A stretch of 64,000 nucleotides of DNA from Alphaproteobacteria bacterium (GTDB lineage Bacteria; Pseudomonadota; Alphaproteobacteria; JACZXZ01). The stretch covers positions 8,995 to 72,994 of the forward strand of contig JBKQRV010000142.1 of assembly GCA_052143835.1 (NCBI GenBank), written 5' to 3'. A model generated the notes under the pieces. It had not been told where the DNA came from. It ran no database searches and was given only the letters and a program-made list of their open reading frames with translations. A program made the position numbers and the translations under genes. Positions 1 through 62,142 of this stretch are shown in pieces (within the stretch, counting starts at the first letter, position 1; the number at the start of each line of letters is the position of its first letter).

Positions 1-1
1 C

Positions 2-598
2 AAGTCATTGACCGGCAGCCTCGAGCAGGAGATCGCGAGGCGCAAGCACGCCGAGGTCGAGTTGGCGCATCTTGCCCGTCACGACGCCCTTACGGGCCTC
101 TCCAACCGCACCACCTTCTTCGAGCGCCTCAAGCTGGAGATCGGCCGGGCGAAGCGCGGCGAGACGAGGTTCGCGGTGCATTACATCGACCTCGACCATT
201 TCAAGGACGTGAACGACACCTACGGCCACCAGATGGGAGACCGCCTGCTTGCGCTCATCGCCGAGCAGCTCGAGAAGAACGTGCGGCAGATCGACCTCGT
301 GTCGCGCCTCGGCGGGGACGAGTTCGCCATCCTCCAGGACGGCATCCACAATCGCTCCGATGCGGAAACGCTCGCGACCAAGCTGCTCGACCAGCTCTCG
401 GACACCTTCGAGATCGACGGCAACCATATTCACATCGCCCCCAGCATCGGCATCGCGCTCTACCACGCCGACGCCGTCAGCGCGGACATGATCCTGGAGC
501 AGGCCGACCTCGCCATGTACCAAGCGAAGTCCGCGGGCCGCAGGTGCTATCGCTGGTACGACGCAGCGCCCGCCGCCAAGACTACCGGGCGGCCTTGA
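2..598 (+). CDS. GGDEF-domain diguanylate cyclase, C-terminal fragment (5' end lies outside the window)
   Basis: ORF 8..598 is in frame to the window edge. It carries GGDEF hallmarks (YIDLDHFKDVNDTYGH, RLGGDEFAIL) and a coiled-coil segment upstream. Confidence 0.75.
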   Translation, partial: KSLTGSLEQEIARRKHAEVELAHLARHDALTGLSNRTTFFERLKLEIGRAKRGETRFAVHYIDLDHFKDVNDTYGHQMGDRLLALIAEQLEKNVRQIDLVSRLGGDEFAILQDGIHNRSDAETLATKLLDQLSDTFEIDGNHIHIAPSIGIALYHADAVSADMILEQADLAMYQAKSAGRRCYRWYDAAPAAKTTGRP

Positions 599-650
599 TC
601 GGCGCCGGCCGGTACCGGCTTGCGTGAAAGGTCGCTACATCATTCATTGC

Positions 651-2321
651 TCAGCGGGCGCTGCCAGAGCCGGACGGGCGATCCGCCGCCAGCATGGCGG
701 CGAAGCGGGCGGTCTCGTCGCGCCATGGCGGGTCGCGCGCCGGGTCGTACGCGAAGTAGTAGGCGTTGCGCGCCGAGAGCCATTCGCGTGCCATCTCGAG
801 TGACAAGTGCTCCGCGTCGGGCACCTGGAGCTCGTGGATGGTTGCGTCGAGATAGACGAGCCGAAAGAGATTGCCGTCGCCGAAGTCCCAGCCGTCGTGA
901 CCCTTGACGGAATAAAGAATCGTCGCTCCGCGCGGCATCGCCGCGGGTGCCACCGGCGGCCGCTGCATGGCCTCGGCGTTCAGCTTGAAGAGCGGCATGC
1001 GGACGCGCACCTCGCGCGCGAAATTGCCGTGCTCCATGACGACGACGACGGCGAAGCTCACCAAGAGCGCACCGCCGAGCACCGCCCGCTGCTGGCCCGC
1101 AACGCGCCGCGCCAGTACTGCAAACGCGCGTCCGGCCATCACCGCATAGGCGGCGACGCAAATCACGTAGTGCCACGGCCGGCCGCCGCTGATGATGGGC
1201 GGTACCGCGGCCGCCATGAAAAGCGCCAGAAGGACAGCGAAGCTCGCGAGCTCGGGCCTGTCGCGCTTGAGCGCCGCGGTGCCGACGTGCCAGGCTATCG
1301 CCGCGAGCAGGGCCGCGCCGAAGACTGTGTTCCACGGATTGTCCTGAATCCAGGTCATCCCCCAAGTGACCATGGGCCACTTGAAGATGTGGGCCACCCC
1401 GAACGGGCCGCTCACGAGATTGCTGAGGACGATCTGCGGATTGAATGCCACGCGATAGGCTGCGGCGGGGTCGTGCGAGACCGTGAACATAGCGAGGCCG
1501 TAGTGCGGGAAAAAGACGAGCCGGAGGTACGCCACCGAAAGTGCTGCGATCAGGAGGAAGCACGTCACGCGTCGCCGCCGCAGCCGCCGGCGCTCCGCCT
1601 CGGCAAGCCGAGCCTCGGCGGAGATCGGCCCCAGCAGGCGCTCGATGAGCAGCACCAGGAGGAGAAACCCCGGAAGTGCGATCGACTGCTCCTTCGAGGT
1701 CAGCGCAACAAGGTAGAGCACGACCGCGAGCGCCAGCCATGCCTTACCCCATCTGCCGGCGAACGCGCGGCCGCAAAACAGCACGGCGGCCGAGATGACG
1801 CAGAGATGATTGATTAAATAAAACCCGACCGCCTCGTAGATGTGCGTGAACATCAGCGGATGGACGACCGCGAACACCGCGGCAGCCGACGCCGCCAGGC
1901 GGTCTCCCTCCATGAGGGTGATCGCAAGCCCATACACGCCCACGCCGAAGGCGAAGAGGAGGACGAACGCGGCGGCCCTGTACGCCGCGATGTCATGCCA
2001 GCCGGCGAGGCGGCTCATCAGCTGGTAATAGACGTAGAAGTCCGTCGGTCGGTAGAAGAACGCCGTGAAATCGAGATATCTGTCGAGGAGGCCGCGCCAG
2101 GTGAGCCCGTCGTTGACCGCGAAGGATAACGCATGCTCGGGGTTGAAGGTCGGATAGTCGAAGCTCCGAGCATAAACGGCGGCCATCGCGAGTGCCACCG
2201 CAGACAGGCCGGCGATGCCCGACGCAAGGCCTCGGCGCGCGAAAAAGCTACCCGCGGGCATGTGCGGAACTTGTCCCGCGTCGTCGCTGATCGGATTCCG
2301 CAGTCGGGGACTCCACGGCAC
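651..2321 (-). CDS. polytopic membrane protein, GT-C fold glycosyltransferase-like (ArnT/PMT-type) candidate
   Basis: 556-aa ORF with many predicted TM helices and a large C-terminal soluble domain. It lies directly downstream of the GT2 polyprenyl-phosphate glycosyltransferase in the same operon. The N-terminal start is uncertain (alternative Met at 2261). Confidence 0.5.
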   Translation of the reverse strand: MPWSPRLRNPISDDAGQVPHMPAGSFFARRGLASGIAGLSAVALAMAAVYARSFDYPTFNPEHALSFAVNDGLTWRGLLDRYLDFTAFFYRPTDFYVYYQLMSRLAGWHDIAAYRAAAFVLLFAFGVGVYGLAITLMEGDRLAASAAAVFAVVHPLMFTHIYEAVGFYLINHLCVISAAVLFCGRAFAGRWGKAWLALAVVLYLVALTSKEQSIALPGFLLLVLLIERLLGPISAEARLAEAERRRLRRRRVTCFLLIAALSVAYLRLVFFPHYGLAMFTVSHDPAAAYRVAFNPQIVLSNLVSGPFGVAHIFKWPMVTWGMTWIQDNPWNTVFGAALLAAIAWHVGTAALKRDRPELASFAVLLALFMAAAVPPIISGGRPWHYVICVAAYAVMAGRAFAVLARRVAGQQRAVLGGALLVSFAVVVVMEHGNFAREVRVRMPLFKLNAEAMQRPPVAPAAMPRGATILYSVKGHDGWDFGDGNLFRLVYLDATIHELQVPDAEHLSLEMAREWLSARNAYYFAYDPARDPPWRDETARFAAMLAADRPSGSGSAR

Positions 2322-2646
2322 TGTTCGCCATCTTGGCCGACACGCACCGGATGGCTTGAATTCCGAGTCTCAGTATGCGCTCCCGGGCCCCCGCGGGCCA
2401 ATACGAAGCTCCACGCGGCTCGCTGCGGCGCGCGAGCACCGCAACCAGCTCCGCGTCGGGCTCGAGGCAAAGCCACGCCGCCTCTCGTCCGGAACACAGC
2501 ACCCGGGTCGTTCCGCCGATGCCTGGCCCCACCTCCAGCACGCGGCGGCCGATATAGGGTCTCAGCAGGCTGGCAAAATAGCCCTTCCACGTCGTCGCGT
2601 CGCGGAACAGCTCGAGTTCGCCACCTTGATAGCGGCAAACCGACAT
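2248..2646 (-). CDS. short class I SAM-dependent methyltransferase-like protein (possibly truncated or pseudogene)
   Basis: Internal Met of ORF 2248..3123. Motif I is VLEVGPGIGGTT and motif II-like is LCLEPD. The ORF is only about 132 aa and its C-terminus looks non-globular; the start abuts the stop of the GT2 gene. Confidence 0.35.
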   Translation of the reverse strand: MSVCRYQGGELELFRDATTWKGYFASLLRPYIGRRVLEVGPGIGGTTRVLCSGREAAWLCLEPDAELVAVLARRSEPRGASYWPAGARERILRLGIQAIRCVSAKMANSAVESPTAESDQRRRGTSSAHARG

Positions 2647-2648
2647 CG

Positions 2649-3656
2649 TCAGGCAACCGGCAGGAGCCGTCGCCAGCCGCGAACGAACACCGAGCCATGG
2701 ACGGCCGGCACCATCTGCATGGTGCCGCGCTCTCGAAGCGTGACAAGGCTGGCCGTCAACAGGATGAACAGCACCTGCATGACAATAATGAGCAGAAATC
2801 CCAACATCATCGATGTCCAGCCGCGGATCGCCAGGTCGGTGAAGAGCCGCACGTAGAGCACCACCGCGGCAGCCGCCACGCTGATCCCAATCACGAATCC
2901 GGCCAACCTGACGATCGCCGCATCGGAGAATACGGAAATGGCCTGCAGGCCGTGCTGGATCAGAGCGACGAAGTTCATGTGCGAATGACCAACGAACCGC
3001 CTGCCGCGGTGGCAAGGAACCAGGACGTAGGGTACCCGCGAACGCATCGCGGTCGCAGGCAAGCTGTTCCACATATTGGACATGTAGGCGAGGCGGCGCA
3101 CCACGTCCGGCGACGCCACGCAATAGTTTCCGAACGAGATGGCATATCCGGTCAGCAACCGGTAGAGCAGCTTGTAAATCTGGTAAAATACGGTGAAAAC
3201 CAAGCCCTCGGAGCGGCTGATCCGCTGGGCGAGCACGAGCTGCCTATCCCCTGTTTCATAGGCCTTCAACAGGCGAGGAACATCGTTGGGATCGTCCTCG
3301 CCGTCGGCGTCCATGACCACGAGGGCGTCATAGCCCTCCCGCTTGGCCAACTCGGAAAGGCCGACCGCGAGCGCGCGCTGATGGCCCATATTGCAATTGA
3401 GGTCGAGGATCTCCAATGAGCGCAGGTGTCGCAACCCGACCGTGCGGCCGAAATCGGCGGGCATCTCCACGGTCGAGCCGTCATTCACGCCGATCACCGA
3501 CGCCTCGAGCCCGAGCTCGTCAGAAACCCTGTCCAGATGCATCAACAGAATGCCGAACGCATCCCAGTCGTTGAAGACCGGGACCACGAACGAGACGCGC
3601 TTCACGGCAGCAGGCTTGGTTTGGAGGGAACCGTCGGTCATCGTGCCCTGGGTCAC
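2649..3656 (-). CDS. GT2 family glycosyltransferase, polyprenyl-phosphate sugar transferase (ArnC/GtrB/DPM1-like)
   Basis: 335 aa. N-terminal GT-A domain (VSFVVPVFND, VIGVNDGS, VVMDADGEDDP) followed by two C-terminal TM helices, typical of the ArnC/GtrB family. Confidence 0.8.
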   Translation of the reverse strand: MTQGTMTDGSLQTKPAAVKRVSFVVPVFNDWDAFGILLMHLDRVSDELGLEASVIGVNDGSTVEMPADFGRTVGLRHLRSLEILDLNCNMGHQRALAVGLSELAKREGYDALVVMDADGEDDPNDVPRLLKAYETGDRQLVLAQRISRSEGLVFTVFYQIYKLLYRLLTGYAISFGNYCVASPDVVRRLAYMSNMWNSLPATAMRSRVPYVLVPCHRGRRFVGHSHMNFVALIQHGLQAISVFSDAAIVRLAGFVIGISVAAAAVVLYVRLFTDLAIRGWTSMMLGFLLIIVMQVLFILLTASLVTLRERGTMQMVPAVHGSVFVRGWRRLLPVA

Positions 3657-3796
3657 TTCAATCGGCGCCGGCCAGCTCTGCTCTTGCCATCAACGAATAG
3701 CACACCACCCGACCGATGAGCCACAGCGGAGGCGCTCGGCGGACCATGCGAGCTTCGGCGGGGTTGCGCCCTAAACGCGGTTGGGGCCGAGAATGG

Positions 3797-4738
3797 CTAG
3801 CTCGCCAGGCCCCGGAAATAGTCGATCGTGCGCTTAAGTCCCTCCTCGAGCGGCACCTTGGGCGTCCAGCCGAGCGTCTTCTGGGCGAGCGAGATGTCGG
3901 GGCAGCGTTGCACGGGATCGTCGGCGGGAAGCGGATGGTGCTCGATCCTGGATTTCGATCCGGTGAGCGAGATCGTCAGCTCGGCCAGCTCGCGCATGCT
4001 GACTTCCTGGGGATTGCCGAGATTGATGGGCCCGGGGACATCGCCCGAGAGCGCCATGAAGCGCACGAACGCCTCGATCATGTCGTCGACGAAGCAAAAG
4101 GCGCGCGTCTGGCTGCCGTCGCCGAAGAGCGTGATCGGCTCGTTGCGCAAAGACTGCTGCACGAAATTGGATACCACACGGCCGTCGTTCGGGTGCATGC
4201 GCGGGCCATAGGTGTTGAAGACCCGGGCGACGCGGATCGACACGCCGTATTGCCGGTAATAATCGAAGAAAAGGGTCTCCGCGCAGCGCTTGCCCTCGTC
4301 GTAGCAGGCGCGGGGGCCGAGCGGGTTGACGTTGCCGCGGTAGCTCTCGGGCTGGGGATGGACCTCGGGGTCGCCGTATACCTCGCTGGTCGAGGCCTGG
4401 AAAACGCGCGCCTTGATGCGCGTGGCCAAGCTGAGGACGTTGATGGCGCCGAGCACGCTCGTCTTGGTGGTCTGCACTGGGTCGAACTGATAGTGGATGG
4501 GCGAGGCCGGGCAGGCCAGATTGTAGATCTCGTCGACCTCGACTTGGACCGGCACGCTGACGTCGTGGCGAAGCAGCTCGAAGTATGGATGGGAGACGAG
4601 GTGCGCGACGTTGTCCTTGAGTCCGGTGAAGAAGTTGTCCAGGCACAACACGTCGCAGCCCTCGGCGAGCAGCCGGTCGCACAGATGCGAGCCGATAAAT
4701 CCGGCGCCGCCGGTCACGAGCACGCGTCTTCTTACCAT
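3797..4738 (-). CDS. uxs: UDP-glucuronate decarboxylase (UDP-xylose synthase), SDR family
   Basis: 313 aa. Has the [13 protein letters not shown] Rossmann motif and the YDEGKR catalytic motif, with end-to-end similarity to UXS/ArnA-decarboxylase enzymes. Confidence 0.88.
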
Positions 4739-4822
4739 GGCTTCCCCCGCCGCCGTTCATCAGCGTAAGCTTACCGATACTACGGCATGCACGCCAGCCG
4801 AGCCGGTCCGAGCCGACTTCGG

Positions 4823-5785
4823 CTATGCCGCCGCGAGCCGGGGAAAGAGCTCGAGCGCATTGCCCCGCTCGATCGCAAGCAGGTCGGCAGCGGCAAGGCC
4901 GAGCGCTTTGAGGCCGCGCACGCTCGCCGTCATCGTCGCCTCGGGTGCGAAGGGATAGTCGCTGCCGAAGAGAACGTTCGCCGCCGGCACCAGCTCGAGA
5001 AGTGCGCGGAAGGCGAAGCGGTTGGCCGAGAGTGCGGTGTCGTAGCGCAGGCGCTTGAGCTCCGCCACCACGCCGTCGGGCACGCTCTTCTTGAATTCCG
5101 GCCTGGCCTCGAGGCGCGCTATGCGCTCGGCGAGGAAGGGCACCGCCCCGCCCGCGTGCGAGAAGATGAAGCGGATGTTGCGGCAGCGCGTGAAGGTGCC
5201 GCCGATGAGGAGGCTCACGATGGCGCGCGTCGTGTCGAAGGGGAACTCGAGCGTCGCGGCCGGGATGGTGTCGAGCGCGAAGCCGCAAAGCGCCGCGGTC
5301 GGATGGAAGTAGACGACGGCCTTGCGGCGATCGAGCTCGTCGAATACGGGCGCGAAGTCCGCCTCGCCCGGGTAGCGGCCGGCATAGTTCGTCATCAGGC
5401 CAATACCGTCCGCCTTGAGCACGTCGAGCGCATAGCCGATCTCGCTGAGACTCGCGTCCACGTCAGGAAGCGGCAGGCTCGCGAACATGCCGAAGCTCAT
5501 GGGACGGTCCCGCCTGAGCTCCGCCGCGTAGTCGTTGCAATGGCGGGCCAGGGCCTGGGTCGCCTTCGCATCGCCGAACCACAGGCCGGGCGTCGAAATG
5601 GAGGTCACCGCGCCCGCGATGCCGTTCCTCGCCATCGCCTCGAGCGAGCGCTCGGGCGACCACTCCGGCGTACGGCCGGAGACCGTGAGCGGGCCGATGC
5701 GCGCCTCTCCCACCGCCGCCACGTACTGCGGCGGCAGGATGTGGTGGTGCACGTCGATCAGGCCAGGCGTCGTCGCTGCGGCCAT
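4823..5785 (-). CDS. amidohydrolase-2 family metal-dependent hydrolase/decarboxylase (ACMSD-like)
   Basis: IDVHHHILP metal-binding motif near the N-terminus and TIM-barrel amidohydrolase_2 features. Start set at the internal Met (MAAATTPGLIDVHHH). Confidence 0.7.
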   Translation of the reverse strand: MAAATTPGLIDVHHHILPPQYVAAVGEARIGPLTVSGRTPEWSPERSLEAMARNGIAGAVTSISTPGLWFGDAKATQALARHCNDYAAELRRDRPMSFGMFASLPLPDVDASLSEIGYALDVLKADGIGLMTNYAGRYPGEADFAPVFDELDRRKAVVYFHPTAALCGFALDTIPAATLEFPFDTTRAIVSLLIGGTFTRCRNIRFIFSHAGGAVPFLAERIARLEARPEFKKSVPDGVVAELKRLRYDTALSANRFAFRALLELVPAANVLFGSDYPFAPEATMTASVRGLKALGLAAADLLAIERGNALELFPRLAAA

Positions 5786-5973
5786 TTCATTCCCTCCCAC
5801 GCACCCTTCGCGAGCCCCCTCGCCGCCCCGGCCCGCGCGCGGCCCTGCCAATCTAGCAGAGCCGCTCGAACGATGTCGATTTGGCGATCACGTTTCCGCC
5901 GGGGCGCGGGCATCGCAGAAGCCCGGCCGATCGATTAGAATGGGCGGAAACGCGCGCAAACGAGGTTCGCATC

Positions 5974-7464
5974 ATGGCTGAATACGACGTGATCGTGGTC
6001 GGCGCCGGCAACGCCGCGATGTGCGCGGCCCTTGCCGCGCGCGAGCAGGGCTGCCGCGTGTTGGCACTCGAGCGGGCACCGCTTGACGAGCGCGGCGGCA
6101 ACTCGACCTTCACGGCCGGCGCCATCCGCGTCGCCTACAACGGGCTCGAGGACCTGCTCGAGCTCATGCCCGACCTCTCCGAGGAGGAGCGGCGCAACAC
6201 CGATTTCGGGACCTACAGCGAGGACCAGTTCTTCGACGACATGGCGCGGATCACCCAGCATCGGGCCAACCCGGACCTCGTCGAGCTCTTGATCCGCCGC
6301 AGCCACCCGACGCTCAAATGGCTGCGCACCAAGGGCGTGCGCTTCGTGCCCATCTACGGCCGGCAGGCCTTCAAGGTCGACGGCAAGTTCAAGTTCTGGG
6401 GCGGGCTCACCGTCGAGACGTGGGGTGGGGGTCCCGGCCTGGTCGACGCGCTCCACAAGGCCGCCCAGGCGAACGGCATCGAGGTGCGCTACGAGAGCCG
6501 CGCGCTCGGCCTGCTCGCCGACGACTCGGGCGTGCGCGGCGTGCGCGTCAAGGCCAAGGGCGTCACCCAGGAGCTCGGCGCCAAAGCCGTGGTGCTCGCC
6601 TGCGGCGGCTTCGAGGCGAACGCCCATTGGCGCACGCGTTATCTCGGCCCCAATTGGGATCTGGCCAAGGTGCGCGGCACGCGCTTCAACACCGGCGACG
6701 GCATCCGCATGGCGCTCGAGGTCGGCGCGCAGTCATGCGGCAACTGGTCGGGCTGCCACGCCGTGGGCTGGGACCGCAACGCGCCCGAGTTCGGCGACCT
6801 CGCCGTCGGCGACGGCTTCCAGAAGCACAGCTATCCCTTCGGCATCATGGTCAACGCGAGGGGCTTGCGCTTCGTCGACGAGGGTGCGGACTTCCGCAAT
6901 TACACCTACGCCAAGTACGGCCGCGTGATCCTCGAGCAGCCCGGCCAGTTCGCCTGGCAGATCTTCGATCAGAAGGTGGTGCACCTGCTGCGCGATGAAT
7001 ATCGCATCCGGCGCGTGACCAAGGCGCAGGCCGACACGCTCGAGGAGCTCGCCGGCAAGCTCGAGGACGTGGACGCGGAGCGCTTCCTCGCGACGGTCAG
7101 CGAATACAATGCCGCCGTCGATCAGACGGTCCCCTTCAATCCGAACGTCAAGGACGGCCGTGCCGCGAAGGGCCTCGCCGTGCCGAAGAGCAACTGGGCG
7201 AACACGATCGAGCGCCCGCCCTTCCTCGCCTTCGCCGTCACCTGCGGCATCACCTTCACCTTCGGCGGCCTGCGCATTACCAACGGCGGCCAAGTGGTCG
7301 ACACGGAGGGGCAGCCGATTCCGGGCCTCTATGCCGCGGGCGAGCTCGTCGGCGACATCTTCTACTTCAACTACCCCGGCGGCACCGGCCTCATGTCGGG
7401 TGCCGTCTTCGGCAAGATCGCCGGCACCTCGGCGGCCGCCGCCGCGAGCGGGGGAAATGACTAA
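5974..7464 (+). CDS. tcuA: FAD-dependent tricarballylate dehydrogenase TcuA-like flavoprotein
   Basis: Starts MAEYDVIVVGAGNAAMCAALAAREQG (FAD Rossmann) and has a GGNS motif. Length about 496 aa, with a GAGG RBS 9 nt upstream; ORF 5881 is an N-terminal extension artefact. Confidence 0.75.
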   Translation: MAEYDVIVVGAGNAAMCAALAAREQGCRVLALERAPLDERGGNSTFTAGAIRVAYNGLEDLLELMPDLSEEERRNTDFGTYSEDQFFDDMARITQHRANPDLVELLIRRSHPTLKWLRTKGVRFVPIYGRQAFKVDGKFKFWGGLTVETWGGGPGLVDALHKAAQANGIEVRYESRALGLLADDSGVRGVRVKAKGVTQELGAKAVVLACGGFEANAHWRTRYLGPNWDLAKVRGTRFNTGDGIRMALEVGAQSCGNWSGCHAVGWDRNAPEFGDLAVGDGFQKHSYPFGIMVNARGLRFVDEGADFRNYTYAKYGRVILEQPGQFAWQIFDQKVVHLLRDEYRIRRVTKAQADTLEELAGKLEDVDAERFLATVSEYNAAVDQTVPFNPNVKDGRAAKGLAVPKSNWANTIERPPFLAFAVTCGITFTFGGLRITNGGQVVDTEGQPIPGLYAAGELVGDIFYFNYPGGTGLMSGAVFGKIAGTSAAAAASGGND

Positions 7465-7467
7465 GTC

Positions 7468-7635
7468 TCAACACGGAGGACACGGAGGACACGGAGGACA
7501 CGGAGAAGAAAGCGAAAGACCTCCAAGGCGGAATGATACGAAGGGGACGAGTACGCATCGCGCATAAGCCTGCCCTGGCGTCATCTTGTTCCCTTTTCCC
7601 ATTTTCCTCCGTGCCCTCCGTGTCCTCCGTGGTGA
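7468..7635. repeat. self-complementary intergenic repeat element (copy 1), terminal inverted arrays of nonamer CACGGAGGA
   Basis: 7472-7505 carries 3.8 tandem copies of CACGGAGGA. 7606-7632 carries 3 copies of the reverse complement TCCTCCGTG. About 100 bp separates the arms. A second copy is at 31975-32177. Confidence 0.7.
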
Positions 7636-7670
7636 ATACTTACCAGCGACGATGGCGCGGGGAGAAAGGC

Positions 7671-8558
7671 ATGGCGATGGCAGAGAAAGAGCCGATCGGA
7701 TTCATCGGGCTCGGCGTGATGGGCGAGCCGATGTGCGCGAACCTCGCGCGCAAATGCGGTGTACCCGTGATCGCCTACGACATCCGCGCGGAGCCGCTCG
7801 CGCGGCTCGGCGCAGACGGCGTGCGCCCGGCCACCTCGGCGGCCGAGCTCGCGCGCGAGGCTGGCGTCGTGATGCTCTCGCTGCCGAGCGGGAACGAGCT
7901 CAGCACCCTTGCCGAGGGCGAGGAGGGCCTCCTTGCGATTTGCCGTCCGGGACAGCTCGTCGTCGATCTCGGCACCTCGCCCGTCGGGCTCACGCGCGCG
8001 CTCGCCGAGCGCTTCGCCCGCAAGGGCGTGGATTACGCGGACGCCCCCGTGGCCCGCACGCGCGAGGCGGCGAAAGCGGGAACTCTCAGCATCATGGTCG
8101 GCGCCAGCAAGGCCGTATTCCGGCGCCTTGAGCCGCTTCTCGCGTGCTTTGCCAGCGACATCACCCATTGCGGCGAGGTCGGCGCGGGCCAGGTGGTCAA
8201 GCTCGTCAACAACATGGTGCTCTTCGAGATCGGCACAGCGCTCGGGGAAGGCCTGGCACTTGCGCGCCGCGCAGGCGTCGAGGGCGAGCTCCTTTTCGCC
8301 ACCCTCACCAAGGGCTCGGCCGACAGCTTCGCGCTGCGCAATCACGGGATGAAGGCGATGCTTCCGGGCCTCTTCCCGGAGCGCGCCTTCTCGGCCGAAT
8401 ACGCGCTCAAGGACGTGAGCTATGCGCTCGAGCTGGCGAAGACCGTCGGCCTCGATCTGCGGGGTGCTGAGCTCGCGCGCACCATCCTCGGCGAAGCGAT
8501 CGCGGCGGGCCATGGCGCCCTCTACTGGCCGGTGATCGCAAAGCTGATCGACGCCTGA
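7671..8558 (+). CDS. NAD(P)-dependent oxidoreductase, 3-hydroxyisobutyrate dehydrogenase / 2-hydroxy-3-oxopropionate reductase family
   Basis: IGFIGLGVMG dinucleotide-binding motif with a HIBADH-type catalytic and C-terminal helical domain; 295 aa from the internal Met. Confidence 0.8.
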   Translation: MAMAEKEPIGFIGLGVMGEPMCANLARKCGVPVIAYDIRAEPLARLGADGVRPATSAAELAREAGVVMLSLPSGNELSTLAEGEEGLLAICRPGQLVVDLGTSPVGLTRALAERFARKGVDYADAPVARTREAAKAGTLSIMVGASKAVFRRLEPLLACFASDITHCGEVGAGQVVKLVNNMVLFEIGTALGEGLALARRAGVEGELLFATLTKGSADSFALRNHGMKAMLPGLFPERAFSAEYALKDVSYALELAKTVGLDLRGAELARTILGEAIAAGHGALYWPVIAKLIDA

Positions 8559-8600
8559 CGCCCTGCCTCGCCCTGCCGCACCCGGAATGATATCAAACGA

Positions 8601-8628
8601 TTGACATTGTCGATCGATCGATATAAAT
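8601..8628 (+). promoter_or_regulatory. sigma70-like promoter (TTGACA ... TATAAAT) with embedded 12-bp palindrome TCGATCGATCGA (candidate TetR operator)
   Basis: TTGACA at 8601-8606, TATAAAT at 8622-8628, perfect palindrome at 8610-8621. The TetR gene start (8669, AGGAA RBS) lies about 40 bp downstream. Confidence 0.55.
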
Positions 8629-8668
8629 GACCTTCTCGCGCCGACCCCGGCGCACGAGGAAAAGGCGC

Positions 8669-9358
8669 ATGCCCCGAAAGACCTCGCGTCGCCGGCCCGG
8701 CACCTATCCGCGCGGCGAGGATACCCGCCGCCGCCTGGTCGAAACGGCGATCGAGATCTTCGCCATCCACGGCTACGAAGGCACCAGCACGCGCGCGCTC
8801 GCGGAGCGCGCCGGCGTGAACCTTCCCGCGATCCCCTACTATTTCGGCAGCAAGCAGGGCCTCTACCGCGCCGCGGTCGAGCACATCATCCGCCACATCG
8901 AGACGCGCATGGGCGCGATCGGCGAACGAGTGCGGAGCGCGCTCGCGCGAGTGAGGCCTCCGCGAAAGGAACTGCTCTCGCTGCTCTCCGAAATGCTCGA
9001 GACCTTCGTCGCGATGGTGGCGGAGCAGGACAATCCCGAGAGCCGCCGGCTCTTCTTTGCCCGCGCCGAGCTCGAGGACACCGCGGCCCTGGATCCGCTT
9101 CAGGAATGCGCGATGCGCCAGGTCCTCAGGCCCTCAGCCGCGCTCGTCGCTCGCCTCATCGGCCGGCCGGCCCGCGACAAGGAGGTCGTGGCTCGCACCC
9201 TCACGCTCCTCGGCCAAGTCGCGATCTTTTGCAACAAGGGGGCGCGCAAGGCGCTCGCGTGGGACGATTTTAGCAGCGACCGCGTGGCCCTCATCCAGCG
9301 TCTGGTGCGCGAGCAGACCGCCGCCATCTTCAAGGGCAGACGGAGCGCCAAGGCATGA
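8669..9358 (+). CDS. TetR/AcrR family transcriptional repressor (efflux regulator)
   Basis: Has an HTH TetR N-terminal domain (TSTRALAERAGVNLPAIPYYFGSKQGLY) and is first gene of the RND efflux operon. Start chosen at the internal Met downstream of the promoter. Confidence 0.8.
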   Translation: MPRKTSRRRPGTYPRGEDTRRRLVETAIEIFAIHGYEGTSTRALAERAGVNLPAIPYYFGSKQGLYRAAVEHIIRHIETRMGAIGERVRSALARVRPPRKELLSLLSEMLETFVAMVAEQDNPESRRLFFARAELEDTAALDPLQECAMRQVLRPSAALVARLIGRPARDKEVVARTLTLLGQVAIFCNKGARKALAWDDFSSDRVALIQRLVREQTAAIFKGRRSAKA

Positions 9359-10881
9359 CGCGGGCGAGCGAGGCGCTAGCTGCGGCTCTCTTGGCACTCG
9401 GCCTTCTTGCCGGATGCGAGGTGGGACCGGACTTCCTGCGTCCGGCACCACCTCCCGTCACGAGCTACACGCCCGAGCCGCTTGCGGCCAAGACCGCGGC
9501 GGCCGACGTGCCCTCCGGCCAGGCCCAGCGTTTCGTCGACGGCCTCGATATTCCGGGCGAGTGGTGGACGCTCTTCCATTCCGCGCCGCTCGATCAGCTG
9601 ATCGCGGAAGCGCTCAAGGCGAACCCGAGCCTCGCGGCGGCGCAAGCCGCGCTGCGCCAGGCGCGCGAGAACGTCTACGCGCAGGAGGGCGCGCTCTTCC
9701 CGAGCGCCGGCCTCGGCGCCTCGGCGACCGAGGAGGTCTTTCCCGGCGCCTCGACCGGCGTCCCAGGCGTCTCGCCCCCCTTCGGCGTCACCACGGCGGC
9801 CCTCAACGTCGCCTACGCGCCCGACTTCTTCGGCGGCGTGCGGCGGCAGATCGAATCGCTCGAGGCCGAGGAGCAGTTCCAGCGCTTCCAGCTCGAGGCG
9901 ACCTACCTGACGCTCACCTCGAACGTGGTGGTGGCCACGATCAACGAGGCCTCGCTCCGCGCCCAGATCGCGGCGACCGAGGACATCATCGAGATCGAGA
10001 GCCAGGAGCTCGGCGTGCTCGAGAAGCAGCTTGTGCTCGGCGGGGCCTCCAAGGCCGCGGTGCTGGCGCAGCAGGCAACGCTCGCGCAGGCCCAGGCGAC
10101 GCTGCCGCCGCTGCAAAGGCAGCTCGCCCAGACGCGCAATCAACTGGCGGCCCTGGCCGGCCACTATCCGAGCGAGGTCCCGGCCGGCAAGTTCGAGCTC
10201 GCCACCATGCATTTGCCCGACGATCTGCCGCTGAGCCTGCCCTCCAGGCTCGTCGAGCAGCGCCCCGACGTGCGCGCGGCGGAAGCGGAGCTCCACGCGG
10301 CGAGCGCGAATATCGGCGTCGCCACAGCGAACCAGCTGCCCCAGTTCAGCATCACCGCTGAGCTCGGCACCGCCTCGCTCGGCTTCGCCCAACTCTTCTC
10401 GCCGGGCACGGGCATTTGGAGCATCGGCGGCAGCGTTGCGCAAACGGTCTTCGACGCCGGAACGCTCCTTCACAAGAAACGCGCGGCGGTGGCGGCCTAC
10501 GAGCAAGCGGCGGCCCAGTACCGCACCACCGTGCTCGCGGCCTTCCAGAACGTGGCCGACGCGCTGCGCGCGCTCCAATCCGACGCCGATGCGGTGAAGG
10601 CGCAAGCGGAGGCCGTGCACTCCGCCGCCGACAGTCTCGCGATCTCGCGTGATCAGTACCAGGCGGGGGCCATCACCTACACGGCGCTGCTCACCGCCGA
10701 GCAGACCTATCAGCAGGCGCGCATAGCCCTCGTCCAGGCGCAGGCCGCCCGCTTCGCCGACACGGCGGCCCTCTTCCAGGCCCTCGGCGGCGGCTGGTGG
10801 AACCGCTCCGACATGGCCGCGAACAAAGCGGGCGAGCCCGAGCGCTTCTGGCTGCCGCCCCTACCCCCCGCCAAGGATTGA
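9355..10881 (+). CDS. RND efflux outer-membrane factor lipoprotein (NodT/OprM family)
   Basis: Lipoprotein signal (LLAGC), two-repeat OMF architecture; its start overlaps the TetR stop by 4 bp. Confidence 0.85.
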   Translation: MTRASEALAAALLALGLLAGCEVGPDFLRPAPPPVTSYTPEPLAAKTAAADVPSGQAQRFVDGLDIPGEWWTLFHSAPLDQLIAEALKANPSLAAAQAALRQARENVYAQEGALFPSAGLGASATEEVFPGASTGVPGVSPPFGVTTAALNVAYAPDFFGGVRRQIESLEAEEQFQRFQLEATYLTLTSNVVVATINEASLRAQIAATEDIIEIESQELGVLEKQLVLGGASKAAVLAQQATLAQAQATLPPLQRQLAQTRNQLAALAGHYPSEVPAGKFELATMHLPDDLPLSLPSRLVEQRPDVRAAEAELHAASANIGVATANQLPQFSITAELGTASLGFAQLFSPGTGIWSIGGSVAQTVFDAGTLLHKKRAAVAAYEQAAAQYRTTVLAAFQNVADALRALQSDADAVKAQAEAVHSAADSLAISRDQYQAGAITYTALLTAEQTYQQARIALVQAQAARFADTAALFQALGGGWWNRSDMAANKAGEPERFWLPPLPPAKD

Positions 10882-10898
10882 CGAACGAGACGGATGCG

Positions 10899-12029
10899 AT
10901 GGCCAAACGAATGATCCTGATGCTGCTCCTGGCCGTGGTGGTCCTGGGCGGCATTTTCGGCTTCGAGGCCTTCAAGAGCAACGCGATCAAGAAGTTTCTG
11001 GCAGCCTCGGGCAACCCGACGCAGACGGTATCGACCGTGGAGGCGAAGCTCGCTGAATGGCAGCCCCGGCTCGAGGCCGTCGGCAGCCTGCGCGCCGTGA
11101 GCGGCGCGGACTTGAGCGCGCAGGTGGCAGGCATCGTCTCGGCCATCCACTTCCAATCCGGCGCCGACGTGAAGCAGGGCACGCTTCTCCTCGAGCTGAT
11201 GGCGGCCGATGACATCGCCAAGCTGCAGTCGCTCAAGGCGACCGCGGCCTTGGCCAGGATCACCCTCGAGCGCGATCAGAAGCAGCTCGCCGCGCAAGCG
11301 GTGAGCCAGCAGACCGTGGATACCGATACGCAGACGCTCAAGAGCGACGAGGCGCAGGTCGTCCAGCAGCAGGCGCTGGTCGAGTACAAGTCCATCCGCG
11401 CGCCGTTTTCCGGTCGGCTCGGCATCCGCCAGGTGGATCTCGGCCAGTATCTCGCCGCGGGCACCGCAATCGCCACCCTGCAGTCCCTCGACCCGATCTA
11501 CGTCGATTTCTATCTGGCGCAGCAGGCGCTGGCCCAGATCAAGGTCGGCCAACCCGTGTCGGCGACGGTCGACACTTACCCGGGCACGGTGTTTCCCGGC
11601 GAAATCGCCGCCATCAATCCCAAGGTCGACCCGGCCACGCGCAACGTCCAGGTGCGGGCCGTGCTCAAGAACGCCGAGCTCAAGCTGCTGCCCGGCATGT
11701 TCGCAACCGTCAGGGTGGAGGTGGGCACGCCCGAGAGCCACCTCACGCTGCCGCAGACGGCGATCACCTACAATTCCTACGGCAGCACGGTCTACATCGT
11801 CGAGCAGAAGGGCAAGAACGCCAGGGGCGAGCCGATGCTCGCGGCGCGGCAGACATTCGTCACCACGGGTGCCACGCGCGGCGACCAGGTGGCGGTGCTC
11901 TCGGGCCTCAAGGCGGGCGAGACCGTGGTGAGCTCCGGCGGGATCAAGCTGCACAATGGCTCACCCGTGACAGTCAACAATTCGGTGCAGCCGAGCGACA
12001 ACCCCAACCCCGCTCCCCCCGACGAATAG
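10899..12029 (+). CDS. RND efflux membrane fusion protein (periplasmic adaptor subunit)
   Basis: Has an N-terminal TM anchor followed by coiled-coil, lipoyl, beta-barrel and MP domains, typical of AcrA/MdtA-family adaptors. Confidence 0.85.
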   Translation: MAKRMILMLLLAVVVLGGIFGFEAFKSNAIKKFLAASGNPTQTVSTVEAKLAEWQPRLEAVGSLRAVSGADLSAQVAGIVSAIHFQSGADVKQGTLLLELMAADDIAKLQSLKATAALARITLERDQKQLAAQAVSQQTVDTDTQTLKSDEAQVVQQQALVEYKSIRAPFSGRLGIRQVDLGQYLAAGTAIATLQSLDPIYVDFYLAQQALAQIKVGQPVSATVDTYPGTVFPGEIAAINPKVDPATRNVQVRAVLKNAELKLLPGMFATVRVEVGTPESHLTLPQTAITYNSYGSTVYIVEQKGKNARGEPMLAARQTFVTTGATRGDQVAVLSGLKAGETVVSSGGIKLHNGSPVTVNNSVQPSDNPNPAPPDE

Positions 12030-61047: not shown

Positions 61048-61123
61048 TTGGCGCGCCCTGGAGGATTCGAACCTCCGACCCACAGCTTAGAAGGCTGTTG
61101 CTCTATCCTCTGAGCTAAGGGCG
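61048..61123 (-). tRNA. tRNA-Arg (anticodon TCT)
   Basis: Hand-folded cloverleaf: acceptor GCGCCCT/AGGGCGC, D-stem GCTC/GAGC, anticodon stem ACAGC/GCTGT with loop CTTCTAA, T-arm GGAGG-TTCGAAT-CCTCC, encoded CCA. Confidence 0.85.
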
Positions 61124-61161
61124 CGCTCTCGCGAGGCATCCCGGGCCGCGCGGCGCGGTCC

Positions 61162-62065: not shown

Positions 62066-62142
62066 TGGTCGGGGCGAGAGGATTCGAACCTCCGGCCTCC
62101 TGCTCCCAAAGCAGGCGCTCTACCAGGCTGAGCTACGCCCCG
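62066..62142 (-). tRNA. tRNA-Pro (anticodon TGG)
   Basis: Hand-folded: acceptor CGGGGCG/CGCCCCG, D-arm GCTC-AGCCTGGTA-GAGC, anticodon stem CCTGC/GCAGG with loop TTTGGGA, T-arm GGAGG-TTCGAAT-CCTCT, discriminator A, encoded CCA. Confidence 0.85.

Follow-up and report, generated by a model that had tools for sequence, protein, structure and literature searches.

Does the cluster at positions 651-4738 of the window (the whole stretch of DNA analysed here, 64,000 nucleotides from an uncultured alphaproteobacterium) encode a pathway in which xylose is carried on a lipid and handed to a periplasmic acceptor? The first-pass annotation had proposed this for four tightly packed minus-strand genes following the logic of the ArnC/ArnT and GtrB/GtrC pathways. 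Our analysis partly supports this reading and partly confirms the observation on which it was built, and the reading withstood each of the refutation tests named in the first-pass annotation that can be run in silico. On balance, we lean towards a locus formed by a cassette of a polyprenyl-phosphate glycosyltransferase (GT2), a SAM methyltransferase and a GT-C-type glycosyltransferase, preceded by a UDP-xylose synthase (UXS) and serving lipid-linked xylose transfer.

The genes of the locus and their boundaries

The locus comprises the following features:

3797-4738, minus strand: UXS gene, 313 aa
3642-3796, no strand: UXS/GT2 spacer, 155 nt
2649-3641, minus strand: GT2 gene from its ATG start, 330 aa, start as in public records
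2649-3656, minus strand: GT2 gene from the alternative GTG start at 3656, 335 aa
2248-2646, minus strand: truncated SAM-methyltransferase remnant, 132-aa ORF
2280-2432, no strand: window-specific 153-nt segment inside the methyltransferase region
651-2261, minus strand: predicted GT-C-fold membrane glycosyltransferase gene, 536 aa from the ATG at 2261

The four minus-strand ORFs were thus found as annotated, but the third is a truncated methyltransferase rather than an intact gene. Likewise, tight packing holds for the GT2, the methyltransferase stump and the GT-C, which are separated by a 2-nt gap and joined by a 14-nt overlap respectively, but not for UXS and GT2, whose spacer has an identical length in the relative L003. 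No promoter-like site was found in this spacer, and the gaps of the locus contained neither terminator-like sites nor matches to Rfam families. UXS is itself preceded, at a distance of 84 nt, by a co-oriented amidohydrolase gene. The window contained no gene for a flippase or for Ugd.

In a phmmer search against the PDB, the 3797-4738 product matched human UXS1 at 1e-119 (403 bits; 57% identity across 307 columns), the next PDB family being at 1e-50; its Pfam matches were Epimerase and GDP_Man_Dehyd. All six active-site residues, including the UXS-specific Ser, Glu and Arg, are kept (roles taken from PMC3438964):

4382-4390, minus strand: T117, S118 and E119
4301-4303, minus strand: Y146
4289-4291, minus strand: K150
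3905-3907, minus strand: R278

Because the UXS1 score is far above that of the next family and the Ser/Glu/Arg set is present, the product is, judged by its sequence, a true UDP-xylose synthase (UDP-glucuronate decarboxylase) and not an epimerase or dehydratase, which upholds the earlier assignment. The gene has a dN/dS of 0.09 (versus L003).

The GT2 product matches Glycos_transf_2 in Pfam. In NCBIfam it scores highest with the ArnC equivalog (50 bits, below the cut-off of 529), then with PgfS and PpgS, and its PDB matches include ArnC (8vxh, 4e-13) and the GtrB protein sll0501 (5ekp, 9e-10). It carries a DXD motif, D111-A-D113 (3303-3311), and hydropathy predicts two hydrophobic C-terminal helices at residues ~243-267 and ~277-302. 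Several of its 1387 homologues are named polyisoprenyl-phosphate glycosyltransferase by their source. As the first-pass annotation had stated, the enzyme is classed by these similarities as being of the ArnC/GtrB polyprenyl-phosphate type. Its dN/dS is 0.23.

What remains at 2248-2646 is a truncated SAM methyltransferase gene. In the 87%-identical relatives L003 and L004, the gene is intact (235-245 aa) and its product matches Methyltransf_11/23/25 in Pfam. DNA alignment with these relatives limits the native part of the stump to codons 1 to ~71 (2433-2646), including motif I (VLEVGPGIGG); the rest of the 132-aa ORF, which as a whole has no Pfam match, is out-of-context sequence. The 153 nt at 2280-2432 are unrelated sequence lying in place of 496 nt that form the 3' two-thirds of the gene. 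A 69-nt stretch (2262-2330), made of the promoter-proximal part of this insert and the 18 nt before the GT-C ATG, is 84% identical (blastn) to the region upstream of a stand-alone GT-C homologue in L100.

A membrane protein with a predicted GT-C fold

The membrane protein had been described as 556 aa long; its length is 536 aa, as the upstream GTG at 2321 lies in non-conserved sequence and all eight close homologues begin with MPxxxF. No match to the 536-aa sequence was found in Pfam, NCBIfam or the PDB, and the HMM search proposed for it, PMT_2 included, therefore returned nothing directly. The anticipated GT-C signature was recovered from structure and from profile-profile comparison. The AlphaFold (AF2) model has a pLDDT of 92.9 and a pTM of 0.93, and its top 32 Foldseek PDB matches are all GT-C enzymes, the best being ArnT (5f15; E 1.3e-5, TM 0.52). 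With hhalign, the family aligned with TMTC_DUF1736/PMT_2-annotated proteins at 97.95% (A1) and 99.4% (A4), the latter with an E of 5e-21 over 393 columns. Eleven TM helices are predicted, with the N-terminus in and the C-terminus out, as well as a C-terminal periplasmic alpha/beta domain at residues ~434-536 (654-962). Fold, topology and TMTC/PMT_2 motif homology are demonstrated as predictions from model and sequence, and the protein is most likely a GT-C-type glycosyltransferase, by presumed activity, of a previously unclassified family.

Its nearly invariant residues are all on the predicted periplasmic side:

2136-2138, minus strand: conserved E42
2046-2054, minus strand: conserved Y70-R71-P72
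1818-1820, minus strand: position 148, Tyr where the family has Asp
1686-1694, minus strand: conserved K190-E191-Q192
1452-1457, minus strand: conserved Y269-R270
1170-1172, minus strand: conserved H364

In the alignment, E42 corresponds to the second Asp of the TMTC/PMT_2 loop-1 DD motif, and the YRP, HP, RxD and KE(Q) positions align with TMTC motifs M2-M4. At position 148, which aligns with the RxD Asp of M3, 66 of the 71 family members have Asp, whereas the window protein and P0002 carry Tyr, a substitution that the first-pass annotation had missed. Matches to PMT_2 or TMTC_DUF1736, together with TPR, Malectin or PAN domains, occur in some of 69 more distant relatives. The gene evolves under relaxed constraint, with a dN/dS of 0.455 compared to 0.09 for UXS and 0.09-0.23 across the neighbouring genes.

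As these comparisons place the GT-C sequence nearer to the TMTC/PMT_2 group, which is of the protein O-glycosylation type, than to ArnT, lipid A is not a favoured target; a protein or glycan acceptor would be at least as likely. Choice of the acceptor presumably falls to the small periplasmic domain at the C-terminus.

Gene linkage in relatives and alternative readings

The order UXS-GT2-methyltransferase-GT-C is common to the window, L003 and L004, and L020 has amidohydrolase-UXS-GT2 at its contig end. UXS orthologues (65-72% identity) adjoin GT2s in L035, L038, L079 and L090, these GT2s being 40-50% identical to one another. UXS is immediately upstream of the GT2 and co-directional in L038, where a methyltransferase follows, and in L090; UXS, GT2 and Ugd are clustered in L035, and a UXS-like gene occurs with Ugd and GT2 in L033. 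The UXS-GT2 linkage recurs in at least four independent lineages, and a UXS or UXS-like gene was near the GT2 in 5 of 79 loci, against ~0.3 expected by chance within 8 kb (a rough estimate). No UXS was found within the flank of most GT2-methyltransferase loci, so xylose need not be the general sugar of the clade.

The conserved partner of the window's GT2 clade, missed by the first-pass annotation, is the SAM methyltransferase, an orthologue of which accompanies the GT2 in 45 of the 79 loci. Of the 48 loci whose flank was long enough, 24 have a large polytopic membrane protein as a neighbour; ten of these proteins were tested, and four proved to be PMT_2/PMT proteins and one DUF6311. A GT2, a methyltransferase and a polytopic membrane protein (a GT-C in those cases that can be identified) together make up an uncharacterised cassette that is widespread. 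On the AT-rich contig of L101, a 27%-identical GT-C family member directly follows a 48%-identical methyltransferase orthologue after a 21-nt gap. The neighbourhood is, however, only partly conserved: the 71-81% identical GT-C homologues (L002/L009, L006, L007, L100) and P0011 (L018) have no UXS, GT2 or methyltransferase adjacent, which leaves one shallow lineage and L101 as the basis of the GT-C link. In a clade of 40% identity (L008, L010, L011, L012), a divergent GtrA-family neighbour is always present.

Could the cassette be decaying, with a methyltransferase pseudogene, a GT-C inactive or on its way out, and UXS possibly persisting in a relic locus to feed other glycans? The replacement of two-thirds of the methyltransferase, the Tyr at the nearly invariant Asp148 (a predicted sugar or metal contact) and the raised dN/dS of the GT-C all point this way. 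However, we consider it unlikely, though by no means negligible: that dN/dS is well below 1, all 536 codons of the GT-C form an uninterrupted ORF in the window and in L003, the E42, YRP, KEQ, YR and H364 residues are kept, and purifying selection acts on both GT2 and UXS. Moreover, D148Y is also found in P0002, whose methyltransferase is intact, so that the substitution is older than the truncation and has been maintained since.

It is rather doubtful that the GT-C lies beside UXS and GT2 by a recent accident and uses another shared lipid-linked donor made elsewhere (e.g., Und-P-glucose, -mannose or -arabinose), a different enzyme consuming the UXS-GT2(-methyltransferase) product. The stand-alone homologues, found in four contexts including one beside integrase, resolvase and relaxase genes, the clade linked to GtrA only and the 69 nt resembling a stand-alone homologue's native upstream region are consistent with such an event, but the very distant family member of L101 again follows the same methyltransferase family, polytopic proteins occupy the same slot in other lineages (PMT_2/PMT or DUF6311 in 5 of 10), and the 14-nt overlap in the window and the 20-nt methyltransferase/GT-C gap in L003 suggest translational coupling. 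Least probable is that UXS supplies Leloir glycosyltransferases of the cytoplasm, for xylose in O-antigen or exopolysaccharide, while GT2 loads a different sugar. The 155-nt spacer and the rarity of nearby UXS genes would fit, and some loci carry DegT aminotransferase, transketolase-like, radical-SAM or DprE1/E2-like genes instead, which implies other sugars in the GT2 clade; against this, UXS directly precedes a divergent GT2 in L038 and L090, clusters with Ugd and GT2 in L035 (UXS-like in L033), and no further glycosyltransferase gene was found in the neighbourhood as a UDP-xylose user.

Known systems and the proposed pathway

Like ArnA/ArnC/ArnT, the locus would combine a UDP-glucuronate-decarboxylating SDR yielding a UDP-pentose, a GT2 with C-terminal TM helices and a periplasmic-side GT-C; among proteins of solved structure, ArnC is the closest to the GT2, and the GT-C finds its best structural match in ArnT (GT83). 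However, the SDR is of the UXS1 type, predicted to complete the reduction to UDP-xylose (Glu/Arg gate; ArnA scores 104 bits, UXS1 403), the locus has no aminotransferase, formyltransferase, deformylase or ArnE/F, the GT2 is well short of the ArnC cut-off, and the GT-C resembles ArnT by a TM of only 0.52, with no sequence match. The three-component transmembrane glycosylation systems (GtrA/GtrB/GtrC O-antigen glucosylation, CsbB/YfhO etc.; reviewed in PMC8035078) similarly pair a GT2 polyprenyl-phosphate sugar synthase, of which GtrB (sll0501) is a solved relative, with a GT-C transferase, and distant members of the window GT-C family adjoin a GtrA-family gene; in contrast, the window locus has no GtrA, its cassette includes UXS and a SAM methyltransferase, and a pentose is predicted. 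The nearest sequence relatives of the GT-C are the TMTC1-4/PMT clan of GT-C O-mannosyltransferases (PMC7801869; Pfam PMT_2, TMTC_DUF1736), with which it shares the 11-TM N-in/C-out topology, loop-1 YRP, the HP/RxD region, loop-3 KE(T/Q) and a long TM7-TM8 periplasmic loop. It differs by Pro-Glu at the loop-1 DD motif, Tyr for the RxD Asp, a ~100-aa alpha/beta domain instead of TPR, no Pfam model at threshold and a predicted xylose rather than mannose donor.

To our knowledge, the one known system with a xylose-type sugar on polyprenyl phosphate is MtxS/MtxT, which pairs a GT2 (MtxS) with a GT-C (MtxT). In the methylthioxylose capping of Mycobacterium tuberculosis lipoarabinomannan, MtxS (Rv0539) makes the polyprenyl-phosphate sugar and MtxT (Rv0541c) transfers it outside the cytoplasm (PMC8780516, PMC12088412). 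Compared by description only, this division between two enzymes is alike, but the sugar is 5-methylthio-xylofuranose, not made via UXS. In the pentofuranose systems (polyprenyl phosphoribose synthase, MATE flippase and GT136 GT-C; Kelly et al. 2024, PMC11127046), a GT-C also adds an envelope-glycan pentose outside the cytoplasm from a lipid-linked donor, and auxiliary DprE1/E2-like epimerases, whose genes also accompany some GT2-methyltransferase loci, diversify the sugar. However, that donor derives from PRPP through polyprenyl phosphoribose synthase rather than from GT2 and a UDP-sugar, and the pentofuranose systems further differ in having furanose sugars, a MATE-type flippase and a GT-C of another family.

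In the pathway that we propose, UXS would convert UDP-glucuronate to UDP-xylose, as its homology and active-site residues indicate, and GT2, by its enzyme type, would load the sugar onto undecaprenyl phosphate at the cytoplasmic face to give Und-P-xylose. Xylose as GT2 donor and as the transferred sugar is what we infer from the gene linkage recurring in independent lineages. Where the methyltransferase is intact, as in the relatives, it probably adds a methyl group to the sugar, either on the lipid or after transfer, a step that would be lost in the window genome. An enzyme encoded elsewhere may flip the lipid-linked sugar, and the 536-aa GT-C would pass it to a periplasmic acceptor, its putative active site being formed by the periplasm-facing E42, YRP, KEQ, YR and H364. 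Because of the truncated methyltransferase and D148Y, the pathway is altered and possibly weakened in the window genome. The locus plausibly encodes a new version of periplasmic glycosylation of the GtrB/GtrC and ArnC/ArnT types and, if this is true, would extend an established mode of envelope decoration to a new sugar.

Gene layout and the methyltransferase stump

In this metagenome-assembled genome, labelled Alphaproteobacteria bacterium, positions 651-4738 of the window hold three intact genes and one gene stump on the minus strand, with a co-oriented gene upstream:

Genes of the locus, in order of transcription
4823-5785, minus strand: Amidohydro_2 gene, co-oriented, 84 nt upstream of UXS
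3797-4738, minus strand: UDP-xylose synthase (UXS), 313 aa, intact gene
between 3797 and 3641: UXS-GT2 spacer, 155 nt
2649-3641, minus strand: polyprenyl-phosphate-type glycosyltransferase (GT2), 330 aa (335 aa from the alternative GTG at 3656)
2248-2646, minus strand: 132-aa ORF, methyltransferase (MTase) stump, 2 nt after GT2
651-2261, minus strand: GT-C membrane protein, 536 aa, overlapping the 132-aa ORF by 14 nt

As the gaps between UXS, GT2, the 132-aa ORF and GT-C are 155, 2 and -14 nt, all on one strand, and no terminator-like site was found within them, co-transcription of UXS, GT2 and GT-C is plausible from the layout. No Rfam family was found in window positions 1-7000. The first-pass annotation had described four tightly packed genes; the common strand, the 2-nt gap and the 14-nt overlap bear this out, but the 155-nt spacer does not, and the "fourth gene" is a stump. 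It had also given the membrane protein 556 aa. We shorten this to 536 aa, since the GTG at 2321 lies in non-conserved sequence and both the public gene call and 8/8 close homologues begin MPxxxF.

The Amidohydro_2 gene (dN/dS 0.22) occupies the same place in L003 and L004, two close relatives with the intact cassette, and in L020, and the sole sigma-70-like site in 400-6200 (5879-5850, minus strand) directly precedes it. This gene may head the transcription unit, with no evident role in a sugar pathway. At the other end, a GGDEF diguanylate cyclase gene (8-598, plus strand), incomplete because the window begins within it, is convergent with the 3' end of the GT-C gene. Upstream of the cluster (~5881-12000), the gene calls of the window's own contig, L001, comprise FAD_binding_2 and NAD_binding_2 oxidoreductases, a TetR regulator and an OEP/MFP/ACR_tran RND efflux operon; tRNA-Arg(TCT) (61049-61124, minus strand) and tRNA-Pro(TGG) (62066-62142, minus strand) are encoded near the opposite end of the window. 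Beyond the window start, ~7 kb past the GT-C gene, the contig carries an IS1595-family transposase (L001 18192-19109) that is missing from the syntenic region of L003, where a 608-aa gene with no Pfam match is found instead.

The 132-aa ORF, which the first-pass annotation did not recognise, is what is left of a class I SAM methyltransferase gene. L003 and L004 (87% identical) have an intact Methyltransf_11/23/25 gene of 235-245 aa at the same position; the window keeps codons 1 to ~71, followed by 153 nt of unrelated sequence (2280-2432) in place of 496 nt. Partly within this replacement, the stretch of 69 nt that precedes the GT-C ATG (2262-2330) is 84% identical to positions 853-921 of L100, upstream of a stand-alone GT-C homologue, and L003 keeps only 18 nt of this region, which suggests an ancestor with a longer MTase-GT-C spacer and independent deletions in the window and L003 lineages. 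Because the PDB relatives of the MTase are only weak (phosphoethanolamine N-methyltransferase and MitM, E ~1e-4), its substrate is not readable from homology. L100 and L007 also have methyltransferases near their stand-alone GT-C homologues, but these are not relatives of the cassette MTase.

UDP-xylose synthase and the polyprenyl-phosphate-type glycosyltransferase

In a phmmer search of the PDB, UXS matched human UXS1 (hUXS1) at 1e-119 and 403 bits, the next family being UDP-glucose 4-epimerase at 1e-50, with ArnA at ~1e-28. UXS and hUXS1 are 57% identical over 307 columns. The hUXS1 active site comprises Thr118, Tyr147 and Lys151 together with the UXS-specific residues Ser119, Glu120 and Arg277, which hold the 4-keto-pentose in the active site until its reduction (PMC3438964). 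At the aligned positions all six are present (T117, S118, E119, Y146, K150 and R278). Sequence evidence thus gives good support to a genuine UXS, as opposed to an epimerase, a dehydratase or an ArnA-type enzyme; the first-pass annotation, which had made its claim depend on this SDR being a UXS-type UDP-glucuronate decarboxylase and no other kind, is borne out on this point. With a dN/dS of 0.09 against L003, the gene is under strong purifying selection. No Ugd homologue was found elsewhere in the window, and the source of UDP-glucuronate lies outside it.

GT2 matches Pfam Glycos_transf_2 (38.9 bits, cut-off 23.3), and its best NCBIfam matches are ArnC (50.2 bits, far under the equivalog cut-off of 529), PgfS and PpgS, enzymes that load a sugar onto polyprenyl phosphate. 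Its only solved relatives are ArnC (8vxh; 4e-13, residues 11-276) and the GtrB homologue sll0501 (5ekp; 9e-10, residues 16-296), and both alignments extend beyond the catalytic domain. The DXD motif MDADGED (residues 110-116) is invariant across the clade, and two hydrophobic segments lie near the C-terminus (~243-267 and ~277-302). The motif, the C-terminal helices and the similarity to ArnC and GtrB argue that GT2 works like GtrB or ArnC, yet is neither: it is predicted to be a synthase of the polyprenyl-phosphate type (GtrB/ArnC/DPMS), a relative of ArnC rather than ArnC itself, in agreement with the type first assigned to it. Its donor sugar is not readable from its sequence.

The membrane protein as a GT-C enzyme

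The HMM search against PMT_2 and ArnT models that the first-pass annotation proposed gave no direct result for the membrane protein, which has no Pfam or NCBIfam match, PMT_2, PMT and ArnT-type models included. Neither its sequence nor a 110-sequence family profile matched the PDB. In a set of 5.8 billion clustered proteins it has only eight close homologues; searching 1.84 billion representatives with a profile returned 273 relatives, 56 of them with E < 1e-30. AlphaFold2 gave a pLDDT of 92.9 and a pTM of 0.93 on a 72-sequence alignment, against a pLDDT of 57 on only eight sequences. When the model was compared with the PDB by Foldseek, ranks 1-32 were all GT-C enzymes, ArnT (5f15) being first (E 1.3e-5, TM 0.52), followed by STT3/PglB/AglB, DPY19, Pmt4 and AftA/B/D; the other matches listed were transporters with probability < 0.2 and two GT-C chains (EmbB, EmbA-EmbB). 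In hhalign comparisons with bacterial proteins annotated as TMTC_DUF1736/PMT_2 (TMTC/PMT_2 being a GT-C O-mannosyltransferase group), the probability rose from 97.95% with the eight close sequences to 99.4% with the 72-sequence alignment (E 5e-21, 393 columns, TM1-TM11), and among 69 more distant relatives four match Pfam PMT_2 and two TMTC_DUF1736. A GT-C signature in profile or structure searches, on which the first reading of this protein had been staked, is therefore present in both.

The TMTC motif set consists of M1 (DD), M2 ((SHKS)YRP), M3 (RxD) and M4 (KE(T/Q)xxT) (PMC7801869). In our alignment, E42, within the invariant YPTFNPEH and Glu in 67/69 members, falls on the second Asp of DD in loop 1, Y70-R71-P72 on SHKSYRP, position 148 (D148 in the family) on the RxD Asp and K190-E191-Q192 on KE(T/Q)xxT. 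The window protein keeps M2 (YRP) and M4 (KEQ), has Pro-Glu for Asp-Asp in M1 and Tyr148 for the M3 Asp. No TPR domain was matched by Pfam at its C-terminus, where the model shows an alpha/beta domain of ~100 residues. Searching the PDB with A6, a TMTC-like alignment, drew TPR matches in such number that it gave no information. The protein is related to TMTC-type proteins and is not a member of them. Eleven model helices and Arg/Lys clusters in alternate loops give an N-in/C-out topology by the positive-inside rule. In the model, the nearly invariant residues (E42, YRP, P135, D148, T188/K190/E191, Y269/R270, N281 and P355/G359/H364) are all placed on the periplasmic side, as is, by the same prediction, the C-terminal domain. 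More distant family members (P0009-P0157) carry C-terminal periplasmic TPR, Malectin, PAN or DUF1349 modules, which would fit a C-terminal domain that recognises the acceptor and is exchanged between lineages. Taken together, the AlphaFold2 model and its Foldseek matches, hhalign, the motif alignment and the Pfam matches of distant relatives establish the fold, the topology as modelled and the clan membership; transferase activity, donor and acceptor are what we infer for the window protein.

Of 71 family members, 66 have Asp at position 148 and two have Glu; Tyr148 is confined to the window protein and P0002, the family member whose cassette retains an intact MTase, both in a UXS cassette. 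The GT-C gene also evolves faster, with a dN/dS of 0.455 between the window and L003, compared with 0.09-0.23 in the neighbouring genes. Since M3 has been modelled as a sugar-contacting motif in TMTCs (PMC7801869), the substitution and the faster evolution could reflect a changed donor specificity; they could equally reflect relaxed constraint. As an explanation of the higher divergence, a recombination tract spanning the GT-C gene was set aside, since sliding identity to L003 (90-95% in the GT-C gene, 94-97% in its neighbours) has no sharp boundaries. With methylation lost and Asp148 replaced by Tyr in GT-C, the pathway in this genome may therefore be altered or weakened.

Gene neighbourhoods and the proposed pathway

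The full UXS-GT2-MTase-GT-C order was found in L003 and L004, and amidohydrolase-UXS-GT2 in L020 up to its contig end, all three being close relatives. GT-C homologues with 71-81% identity stand alone in four contexts (L002/L009, L006, L007 and L100), as does the family member P0011. In L002 (12123-21567), a 71%-identical stand-alone homologue is followed by a phage integrase, a resolvase, a TacA/acetyltransferase toxin-antitoxin pair and a relaxase, and so lies at the edge of an integrative mobile element. In the clade of 40% identity (L008, L010, L011 and L012), a divergently transcribed GtrA-family gene is the neighbour in 4/4 loci. GtrA proteins are flippase components of Gtr systems, and this neighbour fits a lipid-linked donor. 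On the AT-rich contig L101, the 27%-identical family member P0015 lies 21 nt downstream of an MTase 48% identical (3e-79) to that of the cassette, so the MTase-GT-C pairing recurs over a very large evolutionary distance.

From the GT2 side, we collected 80 metagenome loci with 38-46% identical GT2s, of which the near-identical L020 was left out, giving 79. An MTase orthologue is present in 45/79, mostly directly downstream. A large polytopic membrane protein is the direct neighbour in 24 of the 48 loci with enough flank, in half of these (12/24) after the MTase; among ten such proteins tested, four match PMT_2/PMT (one with TPR), one DUF6311 and five nothing, as is the case for the window protein. 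Linkage of GT2 and GT-C genes is conserved in the GT2 clade. The large no-Pfam proteins beside GT2 homologues in L015 and L017 were rejected as relatives of the GT-C family (hhalign probability < 1%). UXS orthologues of 65-72% identity accompany GT2s only 40-50% identical to each other in L038, L090, L079 and L035, and a more distant UXS-like gene is found in L033:

UXS genes at loci of GT2 homologues
L038: UXS-GT2-MTase, order as in the window
L090: UXS-GT2
L079: UXS with a DUF6044/YfhO-like membrane protein
L035: UXS with UDP-glucose dehydrogenase and a DprE1/E2-like pair
L033: 48%-identical UXS-like gene with Ugd

The UXS-GT2 association thus amounts to five independent cases in 79 loci, many of them short, against a chance expectation within 8 kb of ~0.3 (a rough estimate for a gene occurring about once per genome). 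It is from this recurrent linkage that we infer xylose as the sugar. Other GT2 loci have, instead of UXS, genes of the DegT, transketolase-like, B12-radical-SAM or DprE1/E2-like kind, and several sugars are probably handled across the clade. The conservation in relatives that had been suggested as a check mostly fails for GT-C, which stands alone at 71-81% identity, and holds for the GT2-MTase and UXS links, which recur.

Several GT2-methyltransferase loci (L015/L016 9330-11392, L017 7738-9770, L022 and L035) carry a pair of FAD_binding_4 and short-chain dehydrogenase genes resembling mycobacterial DprE1/DprE2, the epimerase pair for decaprenyl-phospho-ribose; in L035 it lies beside Ugd and UXS. 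The pair hints at epimerisation of a sugar on its lipid carrier. Clusters near a GT-C homologue (L007 6583-12663) and near a 55%-identical GT2 (L013 170-7947) contain split transketolase-like E1 genes, methyltransferases, a DegT aminotransferase, a GT2-SDR fusion protein and a B12-radical-SAM enzyme, and suggest elaborate tailoring of lipid-linked sugars. No GtrA, DprE1/E2-like or radical-SAM homologue was found elsewhere in the window, nor was a dedicated flippase gene, in the form of a GtrA-like ORF, seen in the window or among the gene calls around the locus.

The cassette has the logic of ArnA/ArnC/ArnT and GtrA/B/C. UXS would make UDP-xylose from UDP-glucuronate, as its enzyme family indicates, and GT2, judged by its type, would form undecaprenyl-phosphate-xylose. 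In intact cassettes the MTase would modify the sugar, an unlinked flippase would move the lipid-linked sugar across the membrane, and GT-C, by its family and fold, would transfer it to a periplasmic acceptor presumably chosen by the C-terminal domain. By sequence, GT-C groups with TMTC/PMT_2 and not with ArnT, so a protein or glycan acceptor is at least as likely as lipid A. Our joint reading goes further, and we hold it only tentatively, as rather doubtful in its entirety: GT2-SAM methyltransferase-GT-C would be a widespread, unrecognised class of periplasmic glycosylation cassette in which the lipid-linked sugar receives its methyl group either before it is transferred or afterwards, with undecaprenyl-phosphate-xylose or O-methyl-xylose built by the UXS-linked subset, the window protein founding a new GT-C family (Pro-Glu for the loop-1 DD) and D148Y being a donor-specificity switch gained on joining the UXS cassette.

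Pairs of GT2 and GT-C enzymes decorate LPS, teichoic acids, arabinogalactan and surface proteins in the periplasm, and this decoration controls phage receptors, antibiotic resistance (Ara4N) and antigenicity. A full-text literature search turned up neither undecaprenyl-phosphate-xylose nor a GT2/GT-C system fed by UXS, an absence that is no proof; the sole lipid-linked xylose-type donor found was mycobacterial polyprenyl-phospho-methylthioxylose (MtxS/MtxT; PMC8780516, PMC12088412), and three-component systems for pentofuranoses use a PRPP-dependent synthase in place of GT2 (PMC11127046). The mechanism itself is conventional and this copy partly degraded. For this genome the practical gain is modest: "hypothetical protein" becomes "GT-C family glycosyltransferase", and the 132-aa ORF is to be marked as a methyltransferase pseudogene. 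The GT2-methyltransferase-GT-C cassette is uncharacterised, widespread and readily testable. If the proposal is true, xylose, and possibly methyl-xylose, would be added to the few sugars that undecaprenyl phosphate is known to carry, a new GT-C family missed by current Pfam and NCBIfam models would be defined, and a very common cassette of soil and peat bacteria would become a target for glycan discovery.
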